Positions 9,557-56,391 of a stretch of DNA of 64,000 bases are shown here, piece by piece. The stretch covers positions 24,374-88,373 of the forward strand of contig JBBRWS010000003.1 of assembly GCA_038249055.1 (NCBI GenBank). The letters are read 5' to 3'. The translations under genes were made by a program, and so were the position numbers. Position 1 is the first letter of the stretch. Each line of letters starts with the position of its first letter. The notes beneath the pieces were generated by a model, which had not been told where the DNA came from, ran no database searches, and saw only the letters and a list, made by a program, of their open reading frames with translations. Origin of the DNA: Minisyncoccia bacterium. GTDB lineage: Bacteria > Patescibacteriota > Minisyncoccia > Phycocordibacterales > UBA9973.

Positions 9557-9605
9557 AGTAATATAATATCATAAAAAATATACTTTTAAAACATTAAATA
9601 AATAA

Positions 9606-9650
9606 ATCAAAACCCAATTAATATAAATTAATTGGGTTTTGATTTATTAT
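9606..9650. terminator. Long hairpin terminator between permease and FN3 surface protein genes
   Basis: ATCAAAACCCAATTAAT-ataa-ATTAATTGGGTTTTGAT then T-rich. Confidence 0.6.
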
Positions 9651-9662
9651 TAATTTTATAAA

Positions 9663-12600
9663 TTAATTTTGAGTTTGGCTATTTTTTTTTGTAATTACTC
9701 CAATTAAAATTATAATTGATAAAATTAGCAATAAAACAGAAGCTCCAGCCAAATAAAGACTTATGCCATCCATTAAACCTGGTTTTGCTACATTTATTGA
9801 GGCTTCAGCAATAGGAAGATCCTGAAAGGTTACAGCTTCAGCTGTTTTAGTAAATAAATACCCAGAACTTTTAGCTATAATATTACCGGTATTATTTACT
9901 GTTGCGGTGTAAACTGTATGATTACCATTCTCTAGTTCTTTATCTAATAAATACTCCCATTCACCATTATTATCTGCCTTAATAGTCACAATAATAGGGG
10001 TACTATAAATATACAAAGTAATGAAACTGTTTGGTAATGCTTGCCCTTTAATTATTATTTCTTTTTGTTCAGTTAATTTAACATCTTTTACCTTATAAGT
10101 AGGAACAACTGGAGCTTCAGATACTTCAGGCTGTTCTATTTCTACTTTAACTAACTCTGGGCTTTTAGGATTATAACCTAATAATATTTTTTCGGAGGCA
10201 TTAATACTTCTTCCTTCATAAGAAGATACGGGAGAAGGTTTTATTGGGTCAATATTATAAACATAGGTTGAATCATAGTCAGAAATTCCATCATTGTTTG
10301 TATCTTTATAAAGAAGGTCTCCCCCTTGTTCCTTTAATACTCCTGATTTATCTTCTACCGCAACAGTTAATAAATTGAATGCTTCATTAATATTTTCTGA
10401 GTTAACTTTATCTATTTGAGAAACAACACCTCCACCTCCTGCCATTCCTCTAAGATTTTCTATACCTTTATTGATTTCAATTTTTAAATTACTAATATCT
10501 TCCGGTGTAACAAGAGCTAAATTTAATAAACTCATTTCAACTTTATTTATAAGTTCATCTCTATATAAATAAACCTTTAATATATCAATTGTTAAATTAT
10601 TTTCCTTTATAATTTTAATTACATTTAAAGTACTACCGTTAATTATATTAATTAATTGCTCTTTTGTATTAACTATGGAGTTTCTAAGTTCGTCTACAGC
10701 AAAACTAATATCTTGAATATTTGTAATAATTTCATTTGTTGTCTCTGGTAATATAACTTTGGATATTTCATTTTGAATGAGTTTAATCGGATTTTCAATT
10801 ATTTCCTTTTGCTCTATTAGTGAAACTAAAGGCGTTGTTATGATATTGTCTTTATTTTCTTCAATATTCAATGCTGGAATAGATATTGTTTTTAAATCAG
10901 TAAAACCAGAACAAGTTATTGATGATGTTGTGGTTGTTTGTTTATAGCAGGCTTTAACGCGATAATAATAAGGTACTCCACGAGTAACATTAAAATCAGA
11001 GAACGAAGTAGCGTTTGAATTTGCAGAATAAATAACAACCGTAGATTTTGAATCAGAACTAAGTCTTCGTTCTATTATAAAATTTGTTTCATTATTTGAA
11101 TTATCTTCCCAATTAATTTTAATAGAAGGTGTAGTATTAGTAGATGTATTGTTTAATACTAAATTGGTTGGATCAGATATTTGTATAATATTTGTTACAG
11201 GAAGTGGAATTGTAATTTTTTCTAAATCTGCGTAATTAGAACAAACAGTTTTTATTGTTTCTGTTATTGTTCCTGTTGGTGGCGTGTAGCAAGCTTTAAC
11301 ACGATAATCATAAGACACTCCTGGCTTCGCATCATAATCAGTGAAATAATTTACATCTTTGTTTGTATTACCATAAGCAGTTGCGGAATATGTTGTTTCG
11401 CTATTTAATTTTCGCTCAACTGTAAACTCAGTTTCATTATCAGAAAGATCTTCCCATTTAAGTGATATAGATTTTGAGAGAGAATCTAAAGCTGAATATA
11501 ATTTCAAATTAGCTGGTGATGCAACTGCAACAATATTCGGAATAACAACCGGAATCGAAATTCCTTTTAATTCTGTATATCCTGAATAAATTGAGTAAAT
11601 ATTTCCTGATGTTGTTCCTGATGTTGGAGTATAACTAGCCTTTACCCTATAATCGTACGAAATTCCAGCTCTGGCATCATTATCAGTAAAGTAATTAACA
11701 TCTTTATCTGTACTACCATAAGCAGTAGCCGAATATGTTGTTTCGTTGCTTAATTTTCTTTCTATAATAAATTTAGTTTCATTATTGGAATTATCAATCC
11801 ATTTAAGTGGTATAGATTTTGAGAGAGAATCTAAAGTTGAATATAATTTTAAACCTGTGGGGGCGCTTACTGCTGTAACGTTTGGCGTTGTGGATGGAAT
11901 AGAAGTTCCTCTTAATTCAGTATACGCGGAACAAATTTTAGATGTGGTTCCTACTGTTGTAACCGCAGTTGAAGTATAGCAAGCCTTTACTTTATAATAA
12001 TAGGATGCTCCACGGGTAACCTCTAAATCAGTATATGAGGTTTCATTTGAATTTAAATAATAAGAGTTAATGGCTTTCGCACCGTCTATACTTGATGTTC
12101 TATCAATAACAAATTCAGTTTCATTATTAGAATAATCCTCCCATTTAAGTCCAATTGATGCTACCGTGGCGGTAGAAGTATTTTCTACTACTAAATTTTT
12201 AGGAGCAGATACTGTAATATTATTTAGAGATGGAATTGAAATCATAGATACACTAGTAAAACCGGAACAAAGATTTGATGAATATCCTACGTGACAAGCC
12301 TTCACTCGATAGTAATAAGAAACTCCACGATAAACTTGAAAGTCAGTATAATTATTAATTCCTGCATTTGTATAATAAGAAGTTGCAGTTGATGTTAAAT
12401 CATCACTTATTCTTCGTTCTATAATAAATTGCGTTTCGTTATCAGAATTATCAACCCATTTGAGTTCAATTGATGCCTTGAGGGGTGTTGAAATATTATT
12501 CAATTCTAATCCACTTGGGTCTTTAGGAGTATATAAATTTATATTTTCTGTTGTATTTGTTGTATTTGTTGCATCTGTTGTATTTATTGTATCAGTTGTA

Positions 12601-20390: not shown

Positions 20391-20718
20391 ATATACAAAA
20401 TTATTTAATTAATATTTATATAAGTTATAATCATAACGACTAATAATGATTATGACAATATATTTGAATAATCAAAAAAACCGAAACCAATAATTGGTTA
20501 CGGGTCTCTAGGACCTCTAGTTCTTTACTATTCACATTATATAATAATACTTAATTTACACAACAAGTTATTCACAATAAATAAATTATGAACATAACAT
20601 GATAATTATTTATGTTAAAATTAATATCAACGCCATGAAAAATAATTTAATTATAATTTTAATAATTTTATTTATAATACTAATAGGTATAGTAGTATTA
20701 TAAATAAAAAATAATAAT

Positions 20719-21174
20719 ATGAATGATAAAAATAAATTAGAGATAATAAGTGATTCTTTTAAAAATAATCAATATATACCATTAAAATATAGCTGTAATG
20801 GAGATAACATAAATCCCCCACTTTCTATACTCAACATTCCAAAAGAAACAAAATCAATGGCTCTAATTGTTGATGATCCCGATGCTCCTAGTGGAAATTG
20901 GGTTCACTGGATTCTATGGAATATATCTCCCATAACTTCAAAAATTGAAGAAAATATAATACCCATGAATTCCGTTCAAGGTTTAAATGATTCAAACAAT
21001 AACAAATATGATGGTCCATGTCCTCCGTCCGGAACACATAGATATTTTTTCAAATTATATGCCTTAGATTTTACTCTTAATTTAAATAAAGGTAGCAGAA
21101 AAAGTGATTTAGAAAATGCGATAAAAGGACACATTCTTGCTCAAGCAGAACTGATTGGATTATATTCTAAATAA
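20719..21174 (+). CDS. YbhB/YbcL family PEBP (Raf kinase inhibitor-like) protein
   Basis: DDPDAPSGNWVHW and HRYFFKLYALD motifs. Confidence 0.8.
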   Translation: MNDKNKLEIISDSFKNNQYIPLKYSCNGDNINPPLSILNIPKETKSMALIVDDPDAPSGNWVHWILWNISPITSKIEENIIPMNSVQGLNDSNNNKYDGPCPPSGTHRYFFKLYALDFTLNLNKGSRKSDLENAIKGHILAQAELIGLYSK

Positions 21175-24630: not shown

Positions 24631-24670
24631 AAAAAACAGCACTTCTGGGGGGAAGTGCTGTTAGTATTTT
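24631..24670 (-). terminator. Terminator of the Cys-rich small protein gene
   Basis: AACAGCACTTC-loop-GAAGTGCTGTT with A-run (T-run in minus sense). Confidence 0.6.
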
Positions 24671-24751: not shown

Positions 24752-25060
24752 TTATTTTATGAAACTCCTGTTGTGTGCATCTATTGCTTCACGAACAAGT
24801 TCAACCTCTTCATCTGCCCAAGCAGATTTTTTCAACTTATCTGTAAGCTTCTCTTTATCCAATCTATTAAATGAGGATAAACATTGGCCACAAACAACAA
24901 CGCCTTTCATCATGGTACCTTTTTCATATACAACTGGAGATTTCGTATAGATTAACGAATCCTTTTCCCTGTAAAGAAAACTGCATTCACAATTTGTGCA
25001 TCTTCCATACTCAAGAATGCTTCCCAAAATATTACCGAAAAAATTCAAAATTTTTTTCAT
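24752..25060 (-). CDS. Small Cys-rich (CxxC...CxxC) hypothetical protein, possible zinc ribbon
   Basis: ORF 24752-25111; start moved to second Met (MKKILNFF) to avoid overlap with upstream gene; CTNCEC and CGQC pairs. Confidence 0.45.
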   Translation of the reverse strand: MKKILNFFGNILGSILEYGRCTNCECSFLYREKDSLIYTKSPVVYEKGTMMKGVVVCGQCLSSFNRLDKEKLTDKLKKSAWADEEVELVREAIDAHNRSFIK

Positions 25061-25071
25061 CTTCAAATTTA

Positions 25072-26151
25072 TTAATTTTTCAAAATTTCCATAGCCTTTT
25101 CTACACAGCAATTATTATAAATTGCTTTTCTCTCAGGGATAGGAGAAAGAGATGCAATTGAACCCGTAATCAACACAGAAAGTGCTGACAGATTTAAATA
25201 TTCAGCATCTGTAGGTACTTCACCGAGAGTTGCTTTAACTAATTCCAATTTATCAATACAGCACAAAGTGTTCTGTATTTTTGAAAAAGGAATCGGCTCA
25301 CCGCAATACATATCACCTTGTCCAACCCTTAAGTTTTGCAAGAAGTTATCAAGCTCATTTGTACCTGGTACATTTGGAAAGATTGTTTCCCCGCCATTTA
25401 CGTACATAGGTAAAACATATAATTCCTTTTTGGATGCCATTTGCATAAGGCAAGGCAACCTTGAAACGATAGGTTCTGGAACTCCCATCTGAATAGAACG
25501 GTTCTTTTCTGGAAACAAATAAATCATTTTGCTTCCAACCTTAACGTCACTACATAAAGATCTGAGAGTAATTTGATTTTGCATTCTCATTTGTTTAACC
25601 GCACATTCACACCCACTATCCTTCATTTTTTGAATATGTTTCGGTTGAAAAACCGGATACTTATCAAAACCCGAAGTAACAATATTTGCAATTCTAGCGT
25701 ATTCAAACACCTGACTTGCAATAAACGATGGTGTAAAAGAGTTCGGTCGAATTTCAGAGGTTAATTCTTCTGAAATCAAACAATCGAGAGCAGTCGCATG
25801 ATTCATAACAGCCAAAACATTATGACCGCTATTGATCAATTCCAACGCTTTCTGATAATTTTGTGATCCAAAAAGTTTGCACTCTTCAGCTTTTACAAAA
25901 GTACCTATGAGCCATTTTAGAACTGCCTTAGAATCATCACATGGAACATAATGCCCCGTGAAAGTATTAGGTCTCACACTTAATGCATCTAACGATTTCA
26001 ATAGAATTTCTTTTCCTTTTTGGTATCCTTTAATACCGCAATTTGAATATAATTCCACCACTTTTTCTGAAATAAATGACTCCATGTCACTTGGATGATT
26101 ACCCCATGCATTAAACTCAGGAATCAATCCCATTGGTTGAAAATTTTTCAT
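25072..26151 (-). CDS. Soluble glycerol-3-phosphate acyltransferase-like protein (plant plastidial ATS1/GPAT type)
   Basis: FGSQNY...SGHNVLAVMNHATALD (HX4D acyltransferase motif in the context GHNV-L---NH-TEAD of plastidial GPAT) and FPEKNRS (cf. FPEGTRS). Confidence 0.55.
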   Translation of the reverse strand: MKNFQPMGLIPEFNAWGNHPSDMESFISEKVVELYSNCGIKGYQKGKEILLKSLDALSVRPNTFTGHYVPCDDSKAVLKWLIGTFVKAEECKLFGSQNYQKALELINSGHNVLAVMNHATALDCLISEELTSEIRPNSFTPSFIASQVFEYARIANIVTSGFDKYPVFQPKHIQKMKDSGCECAVKQMRMQNQITLRSLCSDVKVGSKMIYLFPEKNRSIQMGVPEPIVSRLPCLMQMASKKELYVLPMYVNGGETIFPNVPGTNELDNFLQNLRVGQGDMYCGEPIPFSKIQNTLCCIDKLELVKATLGEVPTDAEYLNLSALSVLITGSIASLSPIPERKAIYNNCCVEKAMEILKN

Positions 26152-26164
26152 AATTTAGGTTTTA

Positions 26165-26305
26165 GTTTAATTTAAGTTTTGTTTGAATTACCTTACACTC
26201 CATTTAGAAATACAAGGTAATTCAAACAAATATCAATTAATAAAACCATATTTCGAAGAACTACTACCTTTATATAATAGCATATTTATATGTTTTTGTC
26301 AATAT
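26165..26305 (-). promoter_or_regulatory. Conserved promoter + 5' leader hairpin module, copy A (upstream of GPAT-like gene)
   Basis: Minus-sense TTGACA-N17-TATTAT, then 13-bp-stem hairpin TTTGAATTACCTT...AAGGTAATTCAAA about 30 nt before ATG. Confidence 0.5.
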
Positions 26306-26377: not shown

Positions 26378-26414
26378 AAAATAAGGTTAATCACTCTGGA
26401 TTAACCTTATTTTA
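26378..26414 (-). terminator. Terminator of amidase gene
   Basis: AAGGTTAATC-actctg-GATTAACCTT with flanking A/T runs. Confidence 0.6.
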
Positions 26415-27356: not shown

Positions 27357-28718
27357 CTATTTTTTTATAACCTTAAGAGTTTTTCCTGAGACATTTACAA
27401 AATATATTCCAGGTTTATGAGGCAGACCAATAACTGTTTTACCAGCGTTGCATTGTGTTTTTTGTATGACCCTAGAAGTGGAGTCTATAATAGTTAACAT
27501 TTCACCTTCCTTGGTATTTTCAATGTTTAAAATATCAATACAAGGATTGGGAAAAATTTTTAATTCAGAATTATTAATTTGATTAACCGCGGTATGAATA
27601 TCACCAGTGGTATTAATCAGAACTGATAAACCTGTATAACTATTAACAGAAACAATATCTGGTTTCCCATCATTATTTACGTCCGCGACCACAATTCCAT
27701 CTGGATCATTATTATTAGGTGAATTTGTATTAAATACAGTGACAACCTTATTAATAACTACCTGTACACGACCACTTGATATCATGACAATATCATCATA
27801 GCCGTCAGAATTAAGATCACCAACGGAAAGTGCCCCGGGGTTAACCTGATTATCAATATCAAAAGAGATATCAGAGTTAGCTCCCCATACACCAATTTTT
27901 CCAGTAACTGAATAAACTAATTCCTTTCTATTATCTGAACTAATATTTCCAACTACAATTGAAGATGGATTATTTTTATCCGGAATAATGTTTAGATTGG
28001 TCAACATTTCAATGCTTCTATCTTTTCTAAATTTATAAACAGAAACATAATTAAAACCGCCTTGACCATTCATTTTTATTACCGAATTAAAACTATCAGA
28101 CCCGAGCTTTGCAATCTCAATATCATCATACCCTGATTGTGTCGAGGGATAATAATAAGGTAAGGATAGACAACCGATACTATCACAATAATATGCAACA
28201 ATATTGGGTTGATTCCATAGAGAAACTACAATGTCATTTATTCCGTCATCGTTAATATCGCCAATTTTTACAGCATCTACTGTTTTCCCGGCATAAATAT
28301 TAATAGGATGTCCTAATTTACCAACAGTATTTTGATGATAAATAATAATCTCATCACCAGCACCTAATACAACATCACTAAGTCCATCATTATTAATATC
28401 GCCTGAGCTTATAGTGCTCACATCATATTTTTGATAATAAGGATAAACAGCTGATAGCTGTAGGGTATTGCTTGAATCCTGAAGATAAATAAATAATTTA
28501 AAATTAGTATTTACACTTGGATTACTAGCATAAGAACCGGTCGCAACAGCGACGTCTATCTTACCATCGTTATTAAAATCACCTGCCGTCAGGTGATCAG
28601 CTAATGTTCCATTTATGGGATAATTTTTTACCCCTGAAAATGTAACTTGCCCGCAAGCAATGTTACCGATAGAAAGAATACCAAATACAACAACTAGAGT
28701 AATCAGAATTTGTTTCAT
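27357..28718 (-). CDS. Secreted FG-GAP/VCBS-repeat beta-propeller protein with C-terminal T9SS-type (Por secretion tail-like) sorting domain, paralog 1
   Basis: Signal peptide; repeated DxNxDGxxD(I/V)V motifs (DFNNDGKIDVAV, DINNDGLSDVV, DINDDGINDIV...); C-terminus KIFPNPCIDILNIEN...IIDSTSRVI...GIYFVNVSGKTLKVIKK. Confidence 0.7.
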   Translation of the reverse strand: MKQILITLVVVFGILSIGNIACGQVTFSGVKNYPINGTLADHLTAGDFNNDGKIDVAVATGSYASNPSVNTNFKLFIYLQDSSNTLQLSAVYPYYQKYDVSTISSGDINNDGLSDVVLGAGDEIIIYHQNTVGKLGHPINIYAGKTVDAVKIGDINDDGINDIVVSLWNQPNIVAYYCDSIGCLSLPYYYPSTQSGYDDIEIAKLGSDSFNSVIKMNGQGGFNYVSVYKFRKDRSIEMLTNLNIIPDKNNPSSIVVGNISSDNRKELVYSVTGKIGVWGANSDISFDIDNQVNPGALSVGDLNSDGYDDIVMISSGRVQVVINKVVTVFNTNSPNNNDPDGIVVADVNNDGKPDIVSVNSYTGLSVLINTTGDIHTAVNQINNSELKIFPNPCIDILNIENTKEGEMLTIIDSTSRVIQKTQCNAGKTVIGLPHKPGIYFVNVSGKTLKVIKK

Positions 28719-28734
28719 AATTTTTATTATTAAT

Positions 28735-28880
28735 TTTTAGTTTATATTTATTTGAATTACTTTAAATTTCATATAGAAATACAAAGTAATTCAAATAAAT
28801 TACTGTCTAAAAATTATTTTATCAAAGAGCTAAGACTAACTTATATAGTAGCATAAATATAGAGATTTGTCAATCTATAT
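28735..28880 (-). promoter_or_regulatory. Conserved promoter + 5' leader hairpin module, copy B
   Basis: Minus-sense TTGACA-N17-TACTAT then TTTGAATTACTTT...AAAGTAATTCAAA hairpin ~33 nt before ATG. Confidence 0.5.
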
Positions 28881-28952: not shown

Positions 28953-30335
28953 CTAATTCTTTACAACTTTGAATGTTTTACCCGATATATTTACAAAATA
29001 AATTCCAGGATAAAAACCTTCCATACTAACGACTGTTTTATCGTAATCAGTTTTAATCTTCTTTATTACTCTGGAAGTTGAGTCATAAATAGTCAAGATA
29101 TCCTTTCCGTTTGTATTATTAATGTTTACAATATTTTTACAAGGGTTAGGAAATACATTAAGCTCAGTGTCATTAATTTGATTTGTACCTGTAATAATAG
29201 TGGTATTGAGCATAATTGTTAAACCTGTATTACCATTACATGAAACAATGTCTAGTTTCCCATCACTATTTACATCCGTAATAGCTATCCCATCAGGTGA
29301 ATTAATATCTGGTGAATTCGTTGAGAATTTATATATCACCTTATTAACAATCACTTGCACAAAATTATTACTAATCATTACAATTTCATCGATTCCGTCG
29401 GAGTTTAAGTCTCCAGCAGCCAAGGCCCCACTATTATATGGAGTCTGTAAATCAAATGATATTTCAGGAGATGCTCCCCATACATTTATCATTCCATTTA
29501 CTGAATAAATAAGTTCATTCCTTTTGTCGGAAGTAACATTACCCATAACAATAGAGACGGGCATATTATTAACACTATTTGAAATGAGATCTAAATTGGT
29601 TTCAGTATTCAGACTTCTGTCTTTATTAAAATGATAAACAGTAAAAGATAATCTTCCTTTACTGTAGAGTCCTCCTTGACCATACATTTTAATTACAGAA
29701 TTAAAATTATCATCTCCAAGTCGAGCAATCTCAATATCACCATACAATGATGCTCCTGAAAAATACCAAACTGGATAAGCTAATTTGCCCATACTGTCAC
29801 CATAAAAGGCGGCAATGTTTGACTGTCTCCGAAGAGTAATAATGATATCGTTTATTCCATCATCATTTATGTCCCCAATTTTTAGAGCATCAGGTATTGC
29901 ACCACAATAGGTATAAACTGGTGAATTAAATTTACCGTTTACATTTTGGTAAAAAATACCAATTTCTGCTTCTACGGCAATGACAATATCACAGAGACCA
30001 TCATTATTCACGTCACCTGCACCTATTGCCCCCACGCCGTCGGTAGCATGACCATAAGTATAACTATCTGAAAGAATCAAACTGTTGTTCTTATCTTGTA
30101 GGTATACCATTACTTTATAGTTAGTATTGAGACCAGAATCAGTCGTATACGAACTTGTTGCTACAGCAACGTCCTTTTTACCATCATTATTAAAATCACC
30201 TGTTGTAAGGTGATTTGCTAATGTTCCCAAAATTGGGAAATTAGTAAAGGGAGAAAATGTAACTTGCCCGCAAGCGATGTTACTAAACAAAATAAAACCA
30301 AACACAACAAAAAAATTCACTACTAAATTTTTCAT
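28953..30335 (-). CDS. Secreted FG-GAP/VCBS-repeat protein with T9SS-type C-terminal domain, paralog 2
   Basis: Same architecture as 27357-28718, tandem paralog; C-terminus LNVFPNPCKNIVNINN...IYDSTSRVI...GIYFVNISGKTFKVVKN. Confidence 0.7.
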   Translation of the reverse strand: MKNLVVNFFVVFGFILFSNIACGQVTFSPFTNFPILGTLANHLTTGDFNNDGKKDVAVATSSYTTDSGLNTNYKVMVYLQDKNNSLILSDSYTYGHATDGVGAIGAGDVNNDGLCDIVIAVEAEIGIFYQNVNGKFNSPVYTYCGAIPDALKIGDINDDGINDIIITLRRQSNIAAFYGDSMGKLAYPVWYFSGASLYGDIEIARLGDDNFNSVIKMYGQGGLYSKGRLSFTVYHFNKDRSLNTETNLDLISNSVNNMPVSIVMGNVTSDKRNELIYSVNGMINVWGASPEISFDLQTPYNSGALAAGDLNSDGIDEIVMISNNFVQVIVNKVIYKFSTNSPDINSPDGIAITDVNSDGKLDIVSCNGNTGLTIMLNTTIITGTNQINDTELNVFPNPCKNIVNINNTNGKDILTIYDSTSRVIKKIKTDYDKTVVSMEGFYPGIYFVNISGKTFKVVKN

Positions 30336-30349
30336 GATTTCGTTTTTTA

Positions 30350-30490
30350 AATGGTTAGATTATTTGAATTACTTTAAATTCCATATAGAAATACAAAGTA
30401 ATTCAAATAAGTCACGACTTAAAAAAACTTTATCAAAGAACTGATACTGCCTAATAGTCTGACATAAATGCATGGCTTTGTCAATTTACA
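30350..30490 (-). promoter_or_regulatory. Conserved promoter + 5' leader hairpin module, copy C
   Basis: Minus-sense TTGACA then TTTGAATTACTTT...AAAGTAATTCAAA hairpin ~28 nt before ATG. Confidence 0.5.
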
Positions 30491-34967: not shown

Positions 34968-35112
34968 TTTTTAGTATATTATTTTAATTAATTTATTTAT
35001 TTTGGCTCGGTCTTTAAAAATAACATATTAATTTTTACTAATCAATAAAAAACACCATAAGACCATGCATTTGACTGAAATAAAAATAAATATTATTAAA
35101 AAAATTTTATTC

Positions 35113-35146
35113 TAAAAAACCGTCTATATAATATAGACGGTTTTTT
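35113..35146. terminator. Bidirectional hairpin terminator
   Basis: AAAAAACCGTCTATAT-aa-TATAGACGGTTTTTT. Confidence 0.65.
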
Positions 35147-35160
35147 AGAATAAAATAATA

Positions 35161-38958: not shown

Positions 38959-39006
38959 ATTAATCTTTAAACTATTAAATATTTATTTAATAGTTTAAAG
39001 ATTAAT
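38959..39006. repeat. 48-bp perfect AT-rich palindrome in divergent intergenic region
   Basis: ATTAATCTTTAAACTATTAAATA-tt-TATTTAATAGTTTAAAGATTAAT. Confidence 0.6.
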
Positions 39007-39109: not shown

Positions 39110-39466
39110 ATGGATTCATCAAATTCAAACACAACAAAGCCGTTATACCGTGGAACACAAATTGTTTGGTATATTCTAGGTATTATTGAAGTAGTATTAG
39201 CATTTAGATTTGTTCTAAAGCTACTTGCAGCTAACCCTTCAGCAGGTTTTAGTAATCTAATTTATAGTATTAGTTATCCTCTCGCAACTCCATTTTTAAA
39301 TGTCTTTAAATTATCAAAAATCTCAGGAAGTATTTTTGAATGGACTACACTTTTAGCTATGATGGTATATTGGATAATTGCTTTAGGTATTATTAAATTA
39401 TTCTTTATGAGTAAGTCAGTATCTACTCCTGAGGCTGCAATAAAATTAGATAACGCAAATAAATAA
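39110..39466 (+). CDS. YggT-like small membrane protein
   Basis: 118 aa, FRFVLKLLAANPSAGFSNLIYSISYPLATPFLNVF pattern like YggT/Ycf19. Confidence 0.5.
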   Translation: MDSSNSNTTKPLYRGTQIVWYILGIIEVVLAFRFVLKLLAANPSAGFSNLIYSISYPLATPFLNVFKLSKISGSIFEWTTLLAMMVYWIIALGIIKLFFMSKSVSTPEAAIKLDNANK

Positions 39467-39475
39467 TACAAAAAT

Positions 39476-39506
39476 AAAAAACCGTCTAATTTTAGACGGT
39501 TTTTTA
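39476..39506. terminator. Bidirectional terminator
   Basis: AAAAACCGTCTAA-ttt-TAGACGGTTTTTT. Confidence 0.65.
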
Positions 39507-39529
39507 TTTTTGTATATTCTATGTATAAC

Positions 39530-53569: not shown

Positions 53570-54568
53570 TTAATACATTTTCAGTGAAAAAGGATAAGGA
53601 ATATAATTTTCAATATATTCTTCTAAAAAATCTGCCTTTTCTGGAGAATAAATATAATCCCTAGAATTATTAGATATATTATAATTTATATCCTTAACCA
53701 TCTTTCCATCAACTATAATCCCCGATAGAACATCAATTTTTTTACGGTGCAGAAAAAGACACAAATTTTTAGTTATTGGGAAAAATAGTTCAGTATGTGG
53801 GCCACCTAAACTTTTATAATCATAAGGAAAAGCAACCTTATCTTCTGGGACAAAGTAAACAGCTGGTGCATCGGATGTGATAAAATAATTAGGATCTTCA
53901 CATTGTATAATTTGAATAGTCATATCTGAGAGCACATTACTATACATAGTTAAATTTGTAAAAATATGCTTAATAAACAGATTTCTTGGTAAACTTACTT
54001 CAAAATTTCCATCCTCCATCATTTTTATATATTTTTTTGTTGCGCCGTCTGCTTGCTCTTCAGTCATATCTGGAAATTTCTTCTTAAGGTGATCTTTCAT
54101 TTCAGTAATTCTATTACTATTAGAAGATTCAGCCCAATTTTGAGCCTGAGCACTAGCTTTATATATTTCTTCCATCTCAATTTTACTATGCAAAGTTCTA
54201 CTAAGCATTGAGGCAATAAGGGTAATAATGTATTCTCTGTATTTATCAAATATCAACGTAGCATCAAAAAAATTATTTTCTACAAAAGATACGAAATCTT
54301 TATATTTGGATTCAAACTCTTCGCTGAAGAAATCTTCAAAGATGTTTTTATCTTCAAATTCATCGTCCTGGGGAATATATAAATTATTTTTTACGCCAAT
54401 GATATTTAATCCATCCTCTCCCTGAACTACCAGCACTCTATCAGATTTTTCAATGTTATTCTCGAAAAACTTTTTACCTTTTTTGTAAACAAATAATTGT
54501 TCCTCCTTATTCCAAAATTTTTTAAGATATACTTTGGGGATATAATGGTTACGGCTTTTAATTTCCAT
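53570..54568 (-). CDS. DUF4238 family protein
   Basis: N-terminal NHYIPKVYLKKF matches the HYxPxFYLxxF signature of DUF4238. Confidence 0.55.
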   Translation of the reverse strand: MEIKSRNHYIPKVYLKKFWNKEEQLFVYKKGKKFFENNIEKSDRVLVVQGEDGLNIIGVKNNLYIPQDDEFEDKNIFEDFFSEEFESKYKDFVSFVENNFFDATLIFDKYREYIITLIASMLSRTLHSKIEMEEIYKASAQAQNWAESSNSNRITEMKDHLKKKFPDMTEEQADGATKKYIKMMEDGNFEVSLPRNLFIKHIFTNLTMYSNVLSDMTIQIIQCEDPNYFITSDAPAVYFVPEDKVAFPYDYKSLGGPHTELFFPITKNLCLFLHRKKIDVLSGIIVDGKMVKDINYNISNNSRDYIYSPEKADFLEEYIENYIPYPFSLKMY

Positions 54569-54662
54569 ATTTATATTTTAACATTTTTATACCATACTAC
54601 ATATGACTATAATTTTTTAGGATAATTATATTTTATCATTTGAAAATGTTGCGAGTTTTTAT

Positions 54663-55205
54663 TTATTTTAGATTAAGATATTTATCAAACCTATCTTTTT
54701 CAGTTGGGAATTTAGATGTACCTAACTCATATAATTTTTGTGTAAATCCATACATACCCATTTTATTTAACATAAACATCATAACCATAATTGGTTCACA
54801 GCTTTCTGATAAATCTATAGATTTTTTCATATATTCCATAGCTCTGTTTTCGTCACCTAATAAAAATAAGGTCCTCCCTATTTTATCTAAAACAGCTCCA
54901 TTATTTGGTTCAAGTTGTAATGAAACCCAATAATCACTAAAAGCTTTTTCATAATCATTAATCTCACAATAAGCATCTCCCCTTAATACCCATATATAAA
55001 ATAAAGAATCGTCTAATTTTAAACAATCCGAAAAAGAATCAATAGATTCTTTATACAGTTCTAAGTGTAACAATGAGCTTGCTTTGTAAGATAAGGCTGT
55101 AAAATTATTTACATTCTCTTTTAAAATTTTTGCAGATAAAGATAAGCAATCTCCATACTTTTCATTATTATATAATTCTCTTATTTGTTGTATTTCTTCA
55201 TCCAT
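54663..55205 (-). CDS. Tetratricopeptide repeat protein
   Basis: Four TPR-like 34-aa units (W-LG-Y-A-F-P pattern). Confidence 0.7.
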   Translation of the reverse strand: MDEEIQQIRELYNNEKYGDCLSLSAKILKENVNNFTALSYKASSLLHLELYKESIDSFSDCLKLDDSLFYIWVLRGDAYCEINDYEKAFSDYWVSLQLEPNNGAVLDKIGRTLFLLGDENRAMEYMKKSIDLSESCEPIMVMMFMLNKMGMYGFTQKLYELGTSKFPTEKDRFDKYLNLK

Positions 55206-55269
55206 AATTATTTGTAAGAATAAATATCTACTTGATTACTTCCATTTTTACAAAAACTGTATATAAATA

Positions 55270-56391
55270 TTATTTTTTAAATACATTCTCTCTGTGATAA
55301 GCTAAATATTTTTTGTGATCATCTTCAATTTTTGAAAGTTTCATTTCTTTATTTATTCCCAAAAAACCAAAATTTTCAGCACTTAATTTACTTGAAAATA
55401 TTATTTTACCAGCATCATCAAAAGAAATTAATCCAATATCAAACAATTTATCAATATTTGGAATGAGTAATAAACCATTATATTGATCAATTACCTCTTT
55501 AGTATCGCAATCACTCCACGGTTTTATATGTGATGCAACAAGGACCCTAAGGTCATCGCATCCTGTGACACAACATTTCCACCAATATTCAATCAGATAA
55601 TTTCTAAAAAGACCTTGCCCAATTCTCGCTTTAATTATAGTTTCTCTATCTTTTGATACCAATTCTTTGTAATTTCTAATCTTTTGTTCTATGTCTTTTT
55701 GAGGAATATTTAATTTAGCTAACTTATCTTCAATATCCGAAATTATCCAAACAAAAGAATGTGCATTAAGCAAAGAAACATCTTTTATCCCTTTAGTTAA
55801 TAACAACTCTCTAGTCTGATTTAATAAACTATTATAACTGCAATAATTATTCCAAGAGCATTGATGATTTAACTTAAAATCAATGACACCCAATTTACCA
55901 AAAGCAATATCAAAATTATTTGGACTAGTTGGCATATATTGAGCTTTATCTTTTATAAAAAATAGATATGCTAATAAGGGGTAATTTTTACCAAAATATT
56001 CAATAAAGATATTAAATGATTCCTCATCTGTTTTTACTCCAGTAAAGAAATCAAATAGACATTTTTCATAATCATTTATTTCTTTATCTTTAGCTTTATT
56101 TTCAAATTTTACAGTAAGCCTCCAGTCAACAAGATTGTTTTCGTTATTACTAAGTTTTATAGCAGAAAGAACAGATTGAAATATTTTACCTGTTCCAATA
56201 TCCTCAGTTTTCCAATTCCAAAAACCTAATATATTACGAGCTTTTTCATAAATTTCGTCTTTATAACCCTCGTTTCCCTCTGTAAATCTATTTGATGGAA
56301 AAGAAACAAAAGACGTTTTACTTTCATTCTCAACAAAAACCTTAAATAACTGGAAATATTTTTCAAAACAAAATTCATCAATTTTAAACAT
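55270..56391 (-). CDS. HNH nuclease (HNH_2-type C-terminal domain) fused to ~270-aa unknown N-terminal domain
   Basis: C-terminus RIGQGLFRNYLIEYWWKCCVTGCDDLRVLVASHIKPWSDC...NGLLLIPNIDKLFDIGLISFD. Confidence 0.65.
   Translation of the reverse strand: MFKIDEFCFEKYFQLFKVFVENESKTSFVSFPSNRFTEGNEGYKDEIYEKARNILGFWNWKTEDIGTGKIFQSVLSAIKLSNNENNLVDWRLTVKFENKAKDKEINDYEKCLFDFFTGVKTDEESFNIFIEYFGKNYPLLAYLFFIKDKAQYMPTSPNNFDIAFGKLGVIDFKLNHQCSWNNYCSYNSLLNQTRELLLTKGIKDVSLLNAHSFVWIISDIEDKLAKLNIPQKDIEQKIRNYKELVSKDRETIIKARIGQGLFRNYLIEYWWKCCVTGCDDLRVLVASHIKPWSDCDTKEVIDQYNGLLLIPNIDKLFDIGLISFDDAGKIIFSSKLSAENFGFLGINKEMKLSKIEDDHKKYLAYHRENVFKK

Follow-up and report, generated by a model that had tools for sequence, protein, structure and literature searches.

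Introduction

The closest described relatives of the gene considered here are two soluble glycerol-3-phosphate acyltransferases (GPATs). The first is ATS1 of plastids, represented by structures from squash (1K30/1IUQ) and Myrmecia incisa (8IA1), which takes its acyl group from acylated acyl carrier protein (acyl-ACP). In plastid GPATs, a lysine, a histidine and two arginines of motifs III and IV form the pocket for the phosphate of glycerol 3-phosphate (G3P), adjoining the HX4D motif (PMC4785142, citing Turnbull 2001 and Slabas 2002). The second is PlsE (CT807) of Chlamydia trachomatis, a characterised soluble, acyl-ACP-dependent, plastid-like bacterial GPAT (PMC6167442), which sets a precedent for the ATS1 fold serving as a bacterial GPAT. 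Here, we describe a gene at 25072..26151 (minus strand) of a 64,000-nucleotide stretch from a Minisyncoccia bacterium (assembly GCA_038249055.1, contig JBBRWS010000003.1, positions 24,374 to 88,373), hereafter the window. Its product is probably a soluble glycerolipid acyltransferase, competent for catalysis, that has the ATS1/PlsE two-domain fold and belongs to a subfamily found only in the Candidate Phyla Radiation (CPR, or Patescibacteria). The sn-1 acylation of G3P would be its likeliest reaction.

By its published description, PlsE resembles the window protein in being bacterial, soluble and related to ATS1 and in coming from the reduced genome of a host-dependent organism (PMC6167442). 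However, PlsE is described as close to plant ATS1, whereas the window protein is a remote relative. Furthermore, Chlamydia retains the full type II fatty-acid synthesis pathway (FASII), ACP and PlsC, whereas FASII, ACP and enzymes that depend on ACP are reported to be missing from CPR bacteria, in which lysolipids are reportedly enriched (PMC7242380). A sequence-only reading of this locus had called such an enzyme rare in bacteria, a statement that has to be qualified in view of PlsE (PMC6167442) and of the genuine ATS1-like proteins that we found in the representative library.

Results

Conservation and solubility of the protein

The coding sequence starts with ATG, encodes 359 residues and lies in DNA with a GC content of about 29% all along the window. 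A search of 5.8 billion proteins returned 22 relatives at E<=1e-3, all of them full length and with 36-100% identity. The alignment of the 21 sequences that we call the core family has 42 invariant columns. Among the invariant residues are N117, H118, D123, S146-Q-V-F-E-Y151, R153, K171, H172, E215 and R218, together with an N-terminal motif peculiar to the family, I10..F13-N14..G17-N18-H19-P20 (IPEFNAxGNHP). The full-length relatives and the invariant columns indicate that the gene is real and under strong constraint. The protein contains no hydrophobic segment or predicted transmembrane helix (maximum 19-residue Kyte-Doolittle mean 1.48; grand average of hydropathy -0.10) and is therefore soluble, like ATS1. 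At NCBI, core-family members are named "hypothetical protein" of Candidatus Pacebacteria/Paceibacterota, and some carry a PlsC label.

Homology to ATS1 by profile and by fold

When a profile of the 21 core-family members was searched against all PDB sequences, four chains appeared at E<=10, three of them at E<=0.01. The top matches were to the squash plastid GPAT 1IUQ/1K30 (E=7.5e-4, profile 27-226 against chain 30-236); the algal chloroplast GPAT 8IA1 was also among the first three, and the fourth chain was a tafazzin. ATS1 was reached by the family profile only, a single-sequence phmmer search of the 359-residue protein against the PDB giving no match. On the squash side, the profile alignment extends into residues 30-105, and the AlphaFold2 model of the window protein has three N-terminal helices.

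That model, built from the family alignment, has a predicted local distance difference test score (pLDDT) of 92.4 and a predicted template modelling score (pTM) of 0.91. In a Foldseek search of the PDB, it retrieved 1IUQ, 8IA1 and 1K30 first (E ~1e-11, TM score 0.61, ~353 aligned columns), followed by human GPAT1 and PatA, and the nearest folds were all glycerophosphate or lysophospholipid acyltransferases. The model thus predicts the soluble two-domain fold of 1K30/1IUQ. Tafazzin, PlsC and GPAT1 show much lower fold similarity to the window protein and, unlike it, are membrane-bound or membrane-associated. Tafazzin was rejected as a family assignment, being the closest match neither by fold nor by profile.

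The same relationship appeared when families were compared with families. Aligned by hhalign with 11 ATS1/PlsE-type proteins, the core family gave a probability of 99.1% (E=1.4e-18, 262 columns, 18% identity) over residues 26-298, a span that includes the helical region preceding the catalytic domain. We regard those 11 proteins as genuine ATS1-type enzymes because their own profile scores 8IA1 at 1.6e-107 and 1K30 at 8e-104. Conversely, an ATS1-type hidden Markov model (HMM) picked out the acyltransferase alone (41.6 bits) among the 286 six-frame open reading frames (ORFs) of the window.

The distance from ATS1 is nonetheless large: E=7.5e-4 for the core family, against ~1e-107 for genuine ATS1-type proteins matched to 8IA1. 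The core family, which comes from CPR bacteria where ATS1 comes from plastids, aligns with ATS1 from residue 26 only, and its first ~25 residues carry the IPEFNAxGNHP motif instead. Beyond this point, SQVFEYAR stands where ATS1 has VAGDRV, FQPKH where it has YSKKH, and PE(R/K)(D/N)R where it has PSGGRDR. On these sequence comparisons, the acyltransferase is truly related to ATS1/PlsE, but distantly: it represents a sister group and falls outside the ATS1 family proper.

Active site and proposed mechanism

In the profile alignment, the core motif NH(T)sxxD falls on NHQTEAD of ATS1, so that H118 and D123, both invariant, correspond to H139 and D144 of 1K30. The HX4D correspondence put forward from the sequence alone is thus in register, and the catalytic histidine and aspartate, whose absence would have spoken against it, are kept. 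Two other correspondences drawn by eye fared less well. FGSQNY (94-99) had been equated with FGQNY of ATS1, but it is out of register, falling on squash "VGNLSLF" with FGQNY ~18 residues further upstream; the segment homologous to FGSQNY reads "FGLEN" in bacterial ATS1-like proteins. FPEKNRS does occupy the equivalent block-III position, but the FPEGTRS with which it had been compared is a generic PlsC-type box, where ATS1 has APSGGRDR.

The pocket for the phosphate of G3P can also be traced. "QPKH" aligns with "SKKH", which places the invariant K171-H172 on squash K193/H194, and "E..RDR" aligns with "SGGRDR", which places K216 (arginine in most members) and the invariant R218 on squash R235/R237. 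The Lys-His...Arg-x-Arg pattern of the pocket is present in both the HMM and the hhalign alignments. Because these positions are invariant or K/R-conservative throughout the core family, we infer a working acyltransferase with a phosphorylated glycerol acceptor.

By homology, His118, polarised by Asp123, would take a proton from the hydroxyl of a phosphate-bearing glycerol acceptor, the phosphate of which would be held in a basic pocket made of K171, H172, K216 and R218, plus R153. The resulting alkoxide would then attack an activated fatty acyl donor. The likeliest reaction would be the sn-1 acylation of G3P to lysophosphatidate, by which scavenged fatty acids would enter membrane lipid assembly. 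As a close alternative, scavenged lysophospholipids would be re-acylated.

A CPR-restricted subfamily and its sister

When we searched 1.84 billion cluster representatives exhaustively with the family HMM, a wider family of 111 proteins emerged at E<=1e-3, which we sorted by motif into three main tiers, leaving weak matches with FPEGTR- or YPEG-type block III ungrouped. The first tier is the core family (NH[TA][ST]xLD / SQVFEYAR / FPVFQPKH / YPE[RK][DN]R). The second is a larger sister family (NHxSGAD / AGHxVN / RFQIFSxKY / YPEGGRG). The third, at the weak end, carries the canonical ATS1/PlsE motifs (NHQTEAD / VAGDRV / CxYSKKH / APSGGRDR) and includes the 11 proteins used above. Core-family genes also occur in five JGI metagenome loci. 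Viral contigs contained no relatives, and a phage origin was rejected on this ground.

The sister family has the same length and architecture as the core family (hhalign probability 100%, E=1.3e-54, 331 columns), shares its C-terminal "IAxLxP...GxY" tail and is likewise confined to CPR lineages (Andersenbacteria, Magasanikbacteria, Taylorbacteria, Saccharimonadales and "Patescibacteria group"). It differs from the core family in its sequence, with only 20-23% identity, in being without IPEFNAxGNHP and SQVFEY, in having K-Y for K-H and in its PlsC-like EGGR block III. The Prokaryotic Genome Annotation Pipeline (PGAP) and JGI label it PlsC. Both families are thus restricted to the CPR, the core family being a rare subfamily and its sister the larger of the two. 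The core family is also previously undescribed: the literature that we searched for a CPR GPAT or PlsE mentions neither family.

In two of the three sister-family loci, a homologous CoaE-like P-loop gene lies directly downstream (L016:7099-7716 and L017:6957-7547; 27% identity, E=3e-13), and at the third the next gene encodes a DedA/VTT-domain membrane protein (L015:7070-7807). These genes may be partners of the sister acyltransferase, hinting at links to coenzyme A (CoA) or lipid transport. The window differs from the first two of these loci in having no CoaE-like gene.

Transcription unit and shared leader hairpin

The acyltransferase gene is preceded by a sigma-70-type promoter at 26274..26302 (minus strand), in which TTGACA and TATTAT are separated by 17 nucleotides and an upstream TG gives a near-consensus extended -10 element (11/12 matches). 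Starting 8 nt past its stop codon, a small cysteine-rich ORF (24752..25063, minus strand; 103 residues from the ATG at 25063, CxxC...CxxC) follows, which is probably co-transcribed with it, judging by this arrangement. The ORF belongs to no Pfam family and has no counterpart beside the acyltransferase orthologues. An intrinsic-terminator-like hairpin with a T-run (24635..24662, minus strand) closes the two-gene unit, and the terminator-like hairpin of the upstream amidase gene (26378..26413, minus strand) marks its 5' boundary.

Between the promoter and the start codon, the leader contains a long hairpin at 26178..26230 (minus strand). Its stem has 24 uninterrupted pairs, some of them G-U, and the hairpin stops ~27 nt short of the ATG, leaving the start codon free. 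For the 124-nt leader, the folding energy is -35.6 kcal/mol (z = -6.5). The same promoter and hairpin recur twice on this strand: at 28738..28873 (hairpin 28746-28800), upstream of a gene for an FG-GAP/Por_Secre_tail protein (27357-28718), and at 30350..30484 (TTGACA 30484-30479; hairpin 30350-30420), upstream of a paralogous surface-protein gene (28953-30335). The three upstream regions have a mean column identity of 78%, and a 22-nt core of the module is found in the window exactly three times, where 0.04 occurrences are expected. All three leaders form hairpins of 22-24 base pairs (-31 to -36 kcal/mol, z about -6.5). The promoter/leader module that the sequence-only reading had seen shared with the two surface-protein genes is therefore borne out by the identity, the core and the common hairpin.

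The outer stem of the hairpin, TTTGAATTACTTT / AAAGTAATTCAAA, is also found on an unrelated metagenome contig, upstream of an orthologue with 69% identity (L019:1529-1599), and the outer-stem consensus is TTTGAATTAC[CT]TT / AA[GA]GTAATTCAAA. Among the four hairpin copies, compensatory changes affect both bases of two pairs, and several pairs have switched between G-U and A-U. In a covariance model, the sense strand outscores the antisense strand by 35-40 bits, and the model also finds the leader of a 64%-identical orthologue (L001:9911-9986; 31 bits, E ~1e-3). The compensatory pairs, the sense-strand bias and the recurrence at orthologues argue for an element that acts at the RNA level in the mRNA leader. 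No Rfam family matches the hairpin. Another core-family locus, L018, also has a long hairpin in its leader, but with a different sequence; none is present at L004 and L007, which hold more distant members.

The shared module suggests, from sequence, a common control of the acyltransferase and the two surface proteins, and the shared cis-elements are also the ground on which a co-regulated "lipid remodelling" may be proposed. Intergenic regions of this genome often contain long hairpins, so that a generic mRNA-stabilising role is as plausible as a specific co-regulation. Intergenic palindromes, perfect or nearly so and with arms of 20-31 nt, lie at 35104-35156, 38959-39006, 9601-9648, 39459-39522 and 20666-20709; some look like bidirectional terminators (AAAAAACCGTCTA...), and others stand upstream of genes, like the leader hairpins.

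Neighbouring genes

The two surface-protein genes (27357-28718 and 28953-30335, minus strand) encode tandem paralogous secreted proteins with FG-GAP repeats and a Por_Secre_tail, a C-terminal sorting domain of the type IX secretion system kind. A Por_Secre_tail protein is also encoded just upstream of the acyltransferase in L018. Besides these two proteins, the window neighbours include a peptidoglycan amidase, Maf, Smr, a BrkB/YihY-type membrane protein and a major facilitator superfamily transporter. Two small ligand-binding proteins, one of the PEBP/YbhB family (PF01161, E=3e-42; 20719-21174, plus strand) and one SRPBCC "polyketide cyclase / lipid transport" protein (PF10604; 51474-51920, minus strand), could be relevant to lipid handling.

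Elsewhere, a Paceibacterota orthologue with 42% identity (P0012) lies between two GDSL/SGNH lipase-esterase genes (L004:9252-9884 and 11149-11688; also L006), with a PRK/uridine-kinase-like P-loop kinase coming next. No other core-family locus that we examined has a lipid-related neighbourhood; a 175-residue neighbour in L007 is unrelated to GDSL lipases.

Farther along the window, a DUF4238 protein, an HNH_2 endonuclease-domain protein and a type I restriction system occupy 53570-56391 and 59744-63956 (minus strand), a possible defence island. The type I system consists of an HsdR of 1043 residues and an ORF in which only the C-terminal part of N6_Mtase is fused to a specificity-like region.

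Discussion

Several results weigh against the identification as an ATS1-fold GPAT. The two Pfam models with which the sequence-only reading proposed to check its assignment did not support it: GPAT_N (PF14829) was not found in the 359-residue protein even at E<=10, and the match to Acyltransferase (PF01553) reached 16.5 bits, below the gathering score of 23. GPAT_N was likewise matched by none of the 21 core-family members at E<=1, and is present in 1 of 81 wider relatives. That reading had also held that a missing GPAT_N domain, together with best hits to a different lysophospholipid acyltransferase (LPLAT) subfamily, would count against it; the domain is indeed missing, but the best hits are not to a different LPLAT subfamily. 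Identity to ATS1 is ~15-18%, and the register of K216/R218 on R235/R237 hangs on a 2-residue gap, as a gapless alignment would place R218 on R235. With a presence in 4 of 185,579 species-representative genomes (two Paceibacterota, one Komeilibacteria and one Saccharibacteria), the core family is not a general CPR solution. Across ~12 core-family loci, no conserved partner gene was seen. We found no ACP, acyl-ACP synthetase, plsC, cdsA or second LPLAT in the 64-kb window, of which the Pfam scans covered part of the ORFs, and no fab, pls or cds pathway families among the ~30 window ORFs scanned with Pfam. Of the earlier description as a plant-plastid-type soluble GPAT-like gene, the likeness to ATS1 stands, on the best profile and fold matches, whereas membership of the family does not, given the missing GPAT_N, the low identity and the motifs of its own.

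Could the phosphate pocket serve an acceptor other than G3P? On sequence grounds, the acceptor is most likely G3P, in which case the enzyme would be a GPAT. The main alternative acceptor is a lysophospholipid, because the pocket fits both, and this too speaks against a firm assignment as a GPAT. The enzyme would then be a lysophospholipid acyltransferase, or a tafazzin-type carrier-independent transacylase, that re-acylates the lysolipids of host cells, with G3P not being the acceptor. The reported enrichment of CPR bacteria in lysolipids is consistent with such a role, and so is their reported lack of ACP-dependent enzymes; the nearest profile and fold matches are to G3P acyltransferases of plastids. 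We consider this alternative possible but clearly less likely than the acylation of G3P.

An acceptor that is not a phospholipid, such as a glycolipid, a cell-envelope polymer or a small metabolite, would turn the link with the surface proteins into one of envelope modification. The leader module shared with the surface-protein genes would fit this idea, but the residues of the phosphate pocket are conserved, every one of the nearest folds belongs to a glycerophosphate or lysophospholipid acyltransferase, and the envelope-gene context is not kept at the other loci, which makes it improbable. Least probable of all, by a little, is the PlsC of the database annotation, which has the JGI and NCBI source names and a weak PF01553 match in all 21 core-family members in its favour, but which we reject as a family assignment because TIGR00530 (PlsC) gives 11.9 bits against an NCBIfam cutoff of 102.95, PF01553 also stays below its curated threshold, and the protein is without the compact architecture of ~230-260 residues with an N-terminal membrane-anchoring helix pair (5KYM).

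The reading that we prefer is thus the soluble acyltransferase of the ATS1/PlsE fold that would acylate G3P at sn-1. A more far-reaching proposal, which we regard as speculative and rather unlikely, is that the core and sister families together are the missing first acyltransferase of the CPR/Patescibacteria. In this proposal, the ATS1 fold would have been re-tooled, through IPEFNAxGNHP and SQVFEYAR, for an ACP-independent acyl source (host acyl-CoA, acyl-phosphate or direct transacylation from host phospholipid). The enzyme would be the entry point of membrane building in lipid-auxotrophic episymbionts, switched on together with host-contact surface proteins through the shared leader-RNA hairpin.

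The ultra-small CPR/Patescibacteria account for much of bacterial diversity and are considered incapable of making fatty acids or phospholipids; an open question is how they acquire and assemble their membranes (PMC7242380). Database annotation is of no help here, or misleads: it names the core family "hypothetical protein" or PlsC and the sister family PlsC. A CPR-restricted soluble enzyme of the ATS1/PlsE fold with its active site intact is a concrete, clonable candidate for loading scavenged acyl chains onto a glycerophosphate backbone, and it could reveal whether these bacteria run carrier-independent or host-fed acylation.
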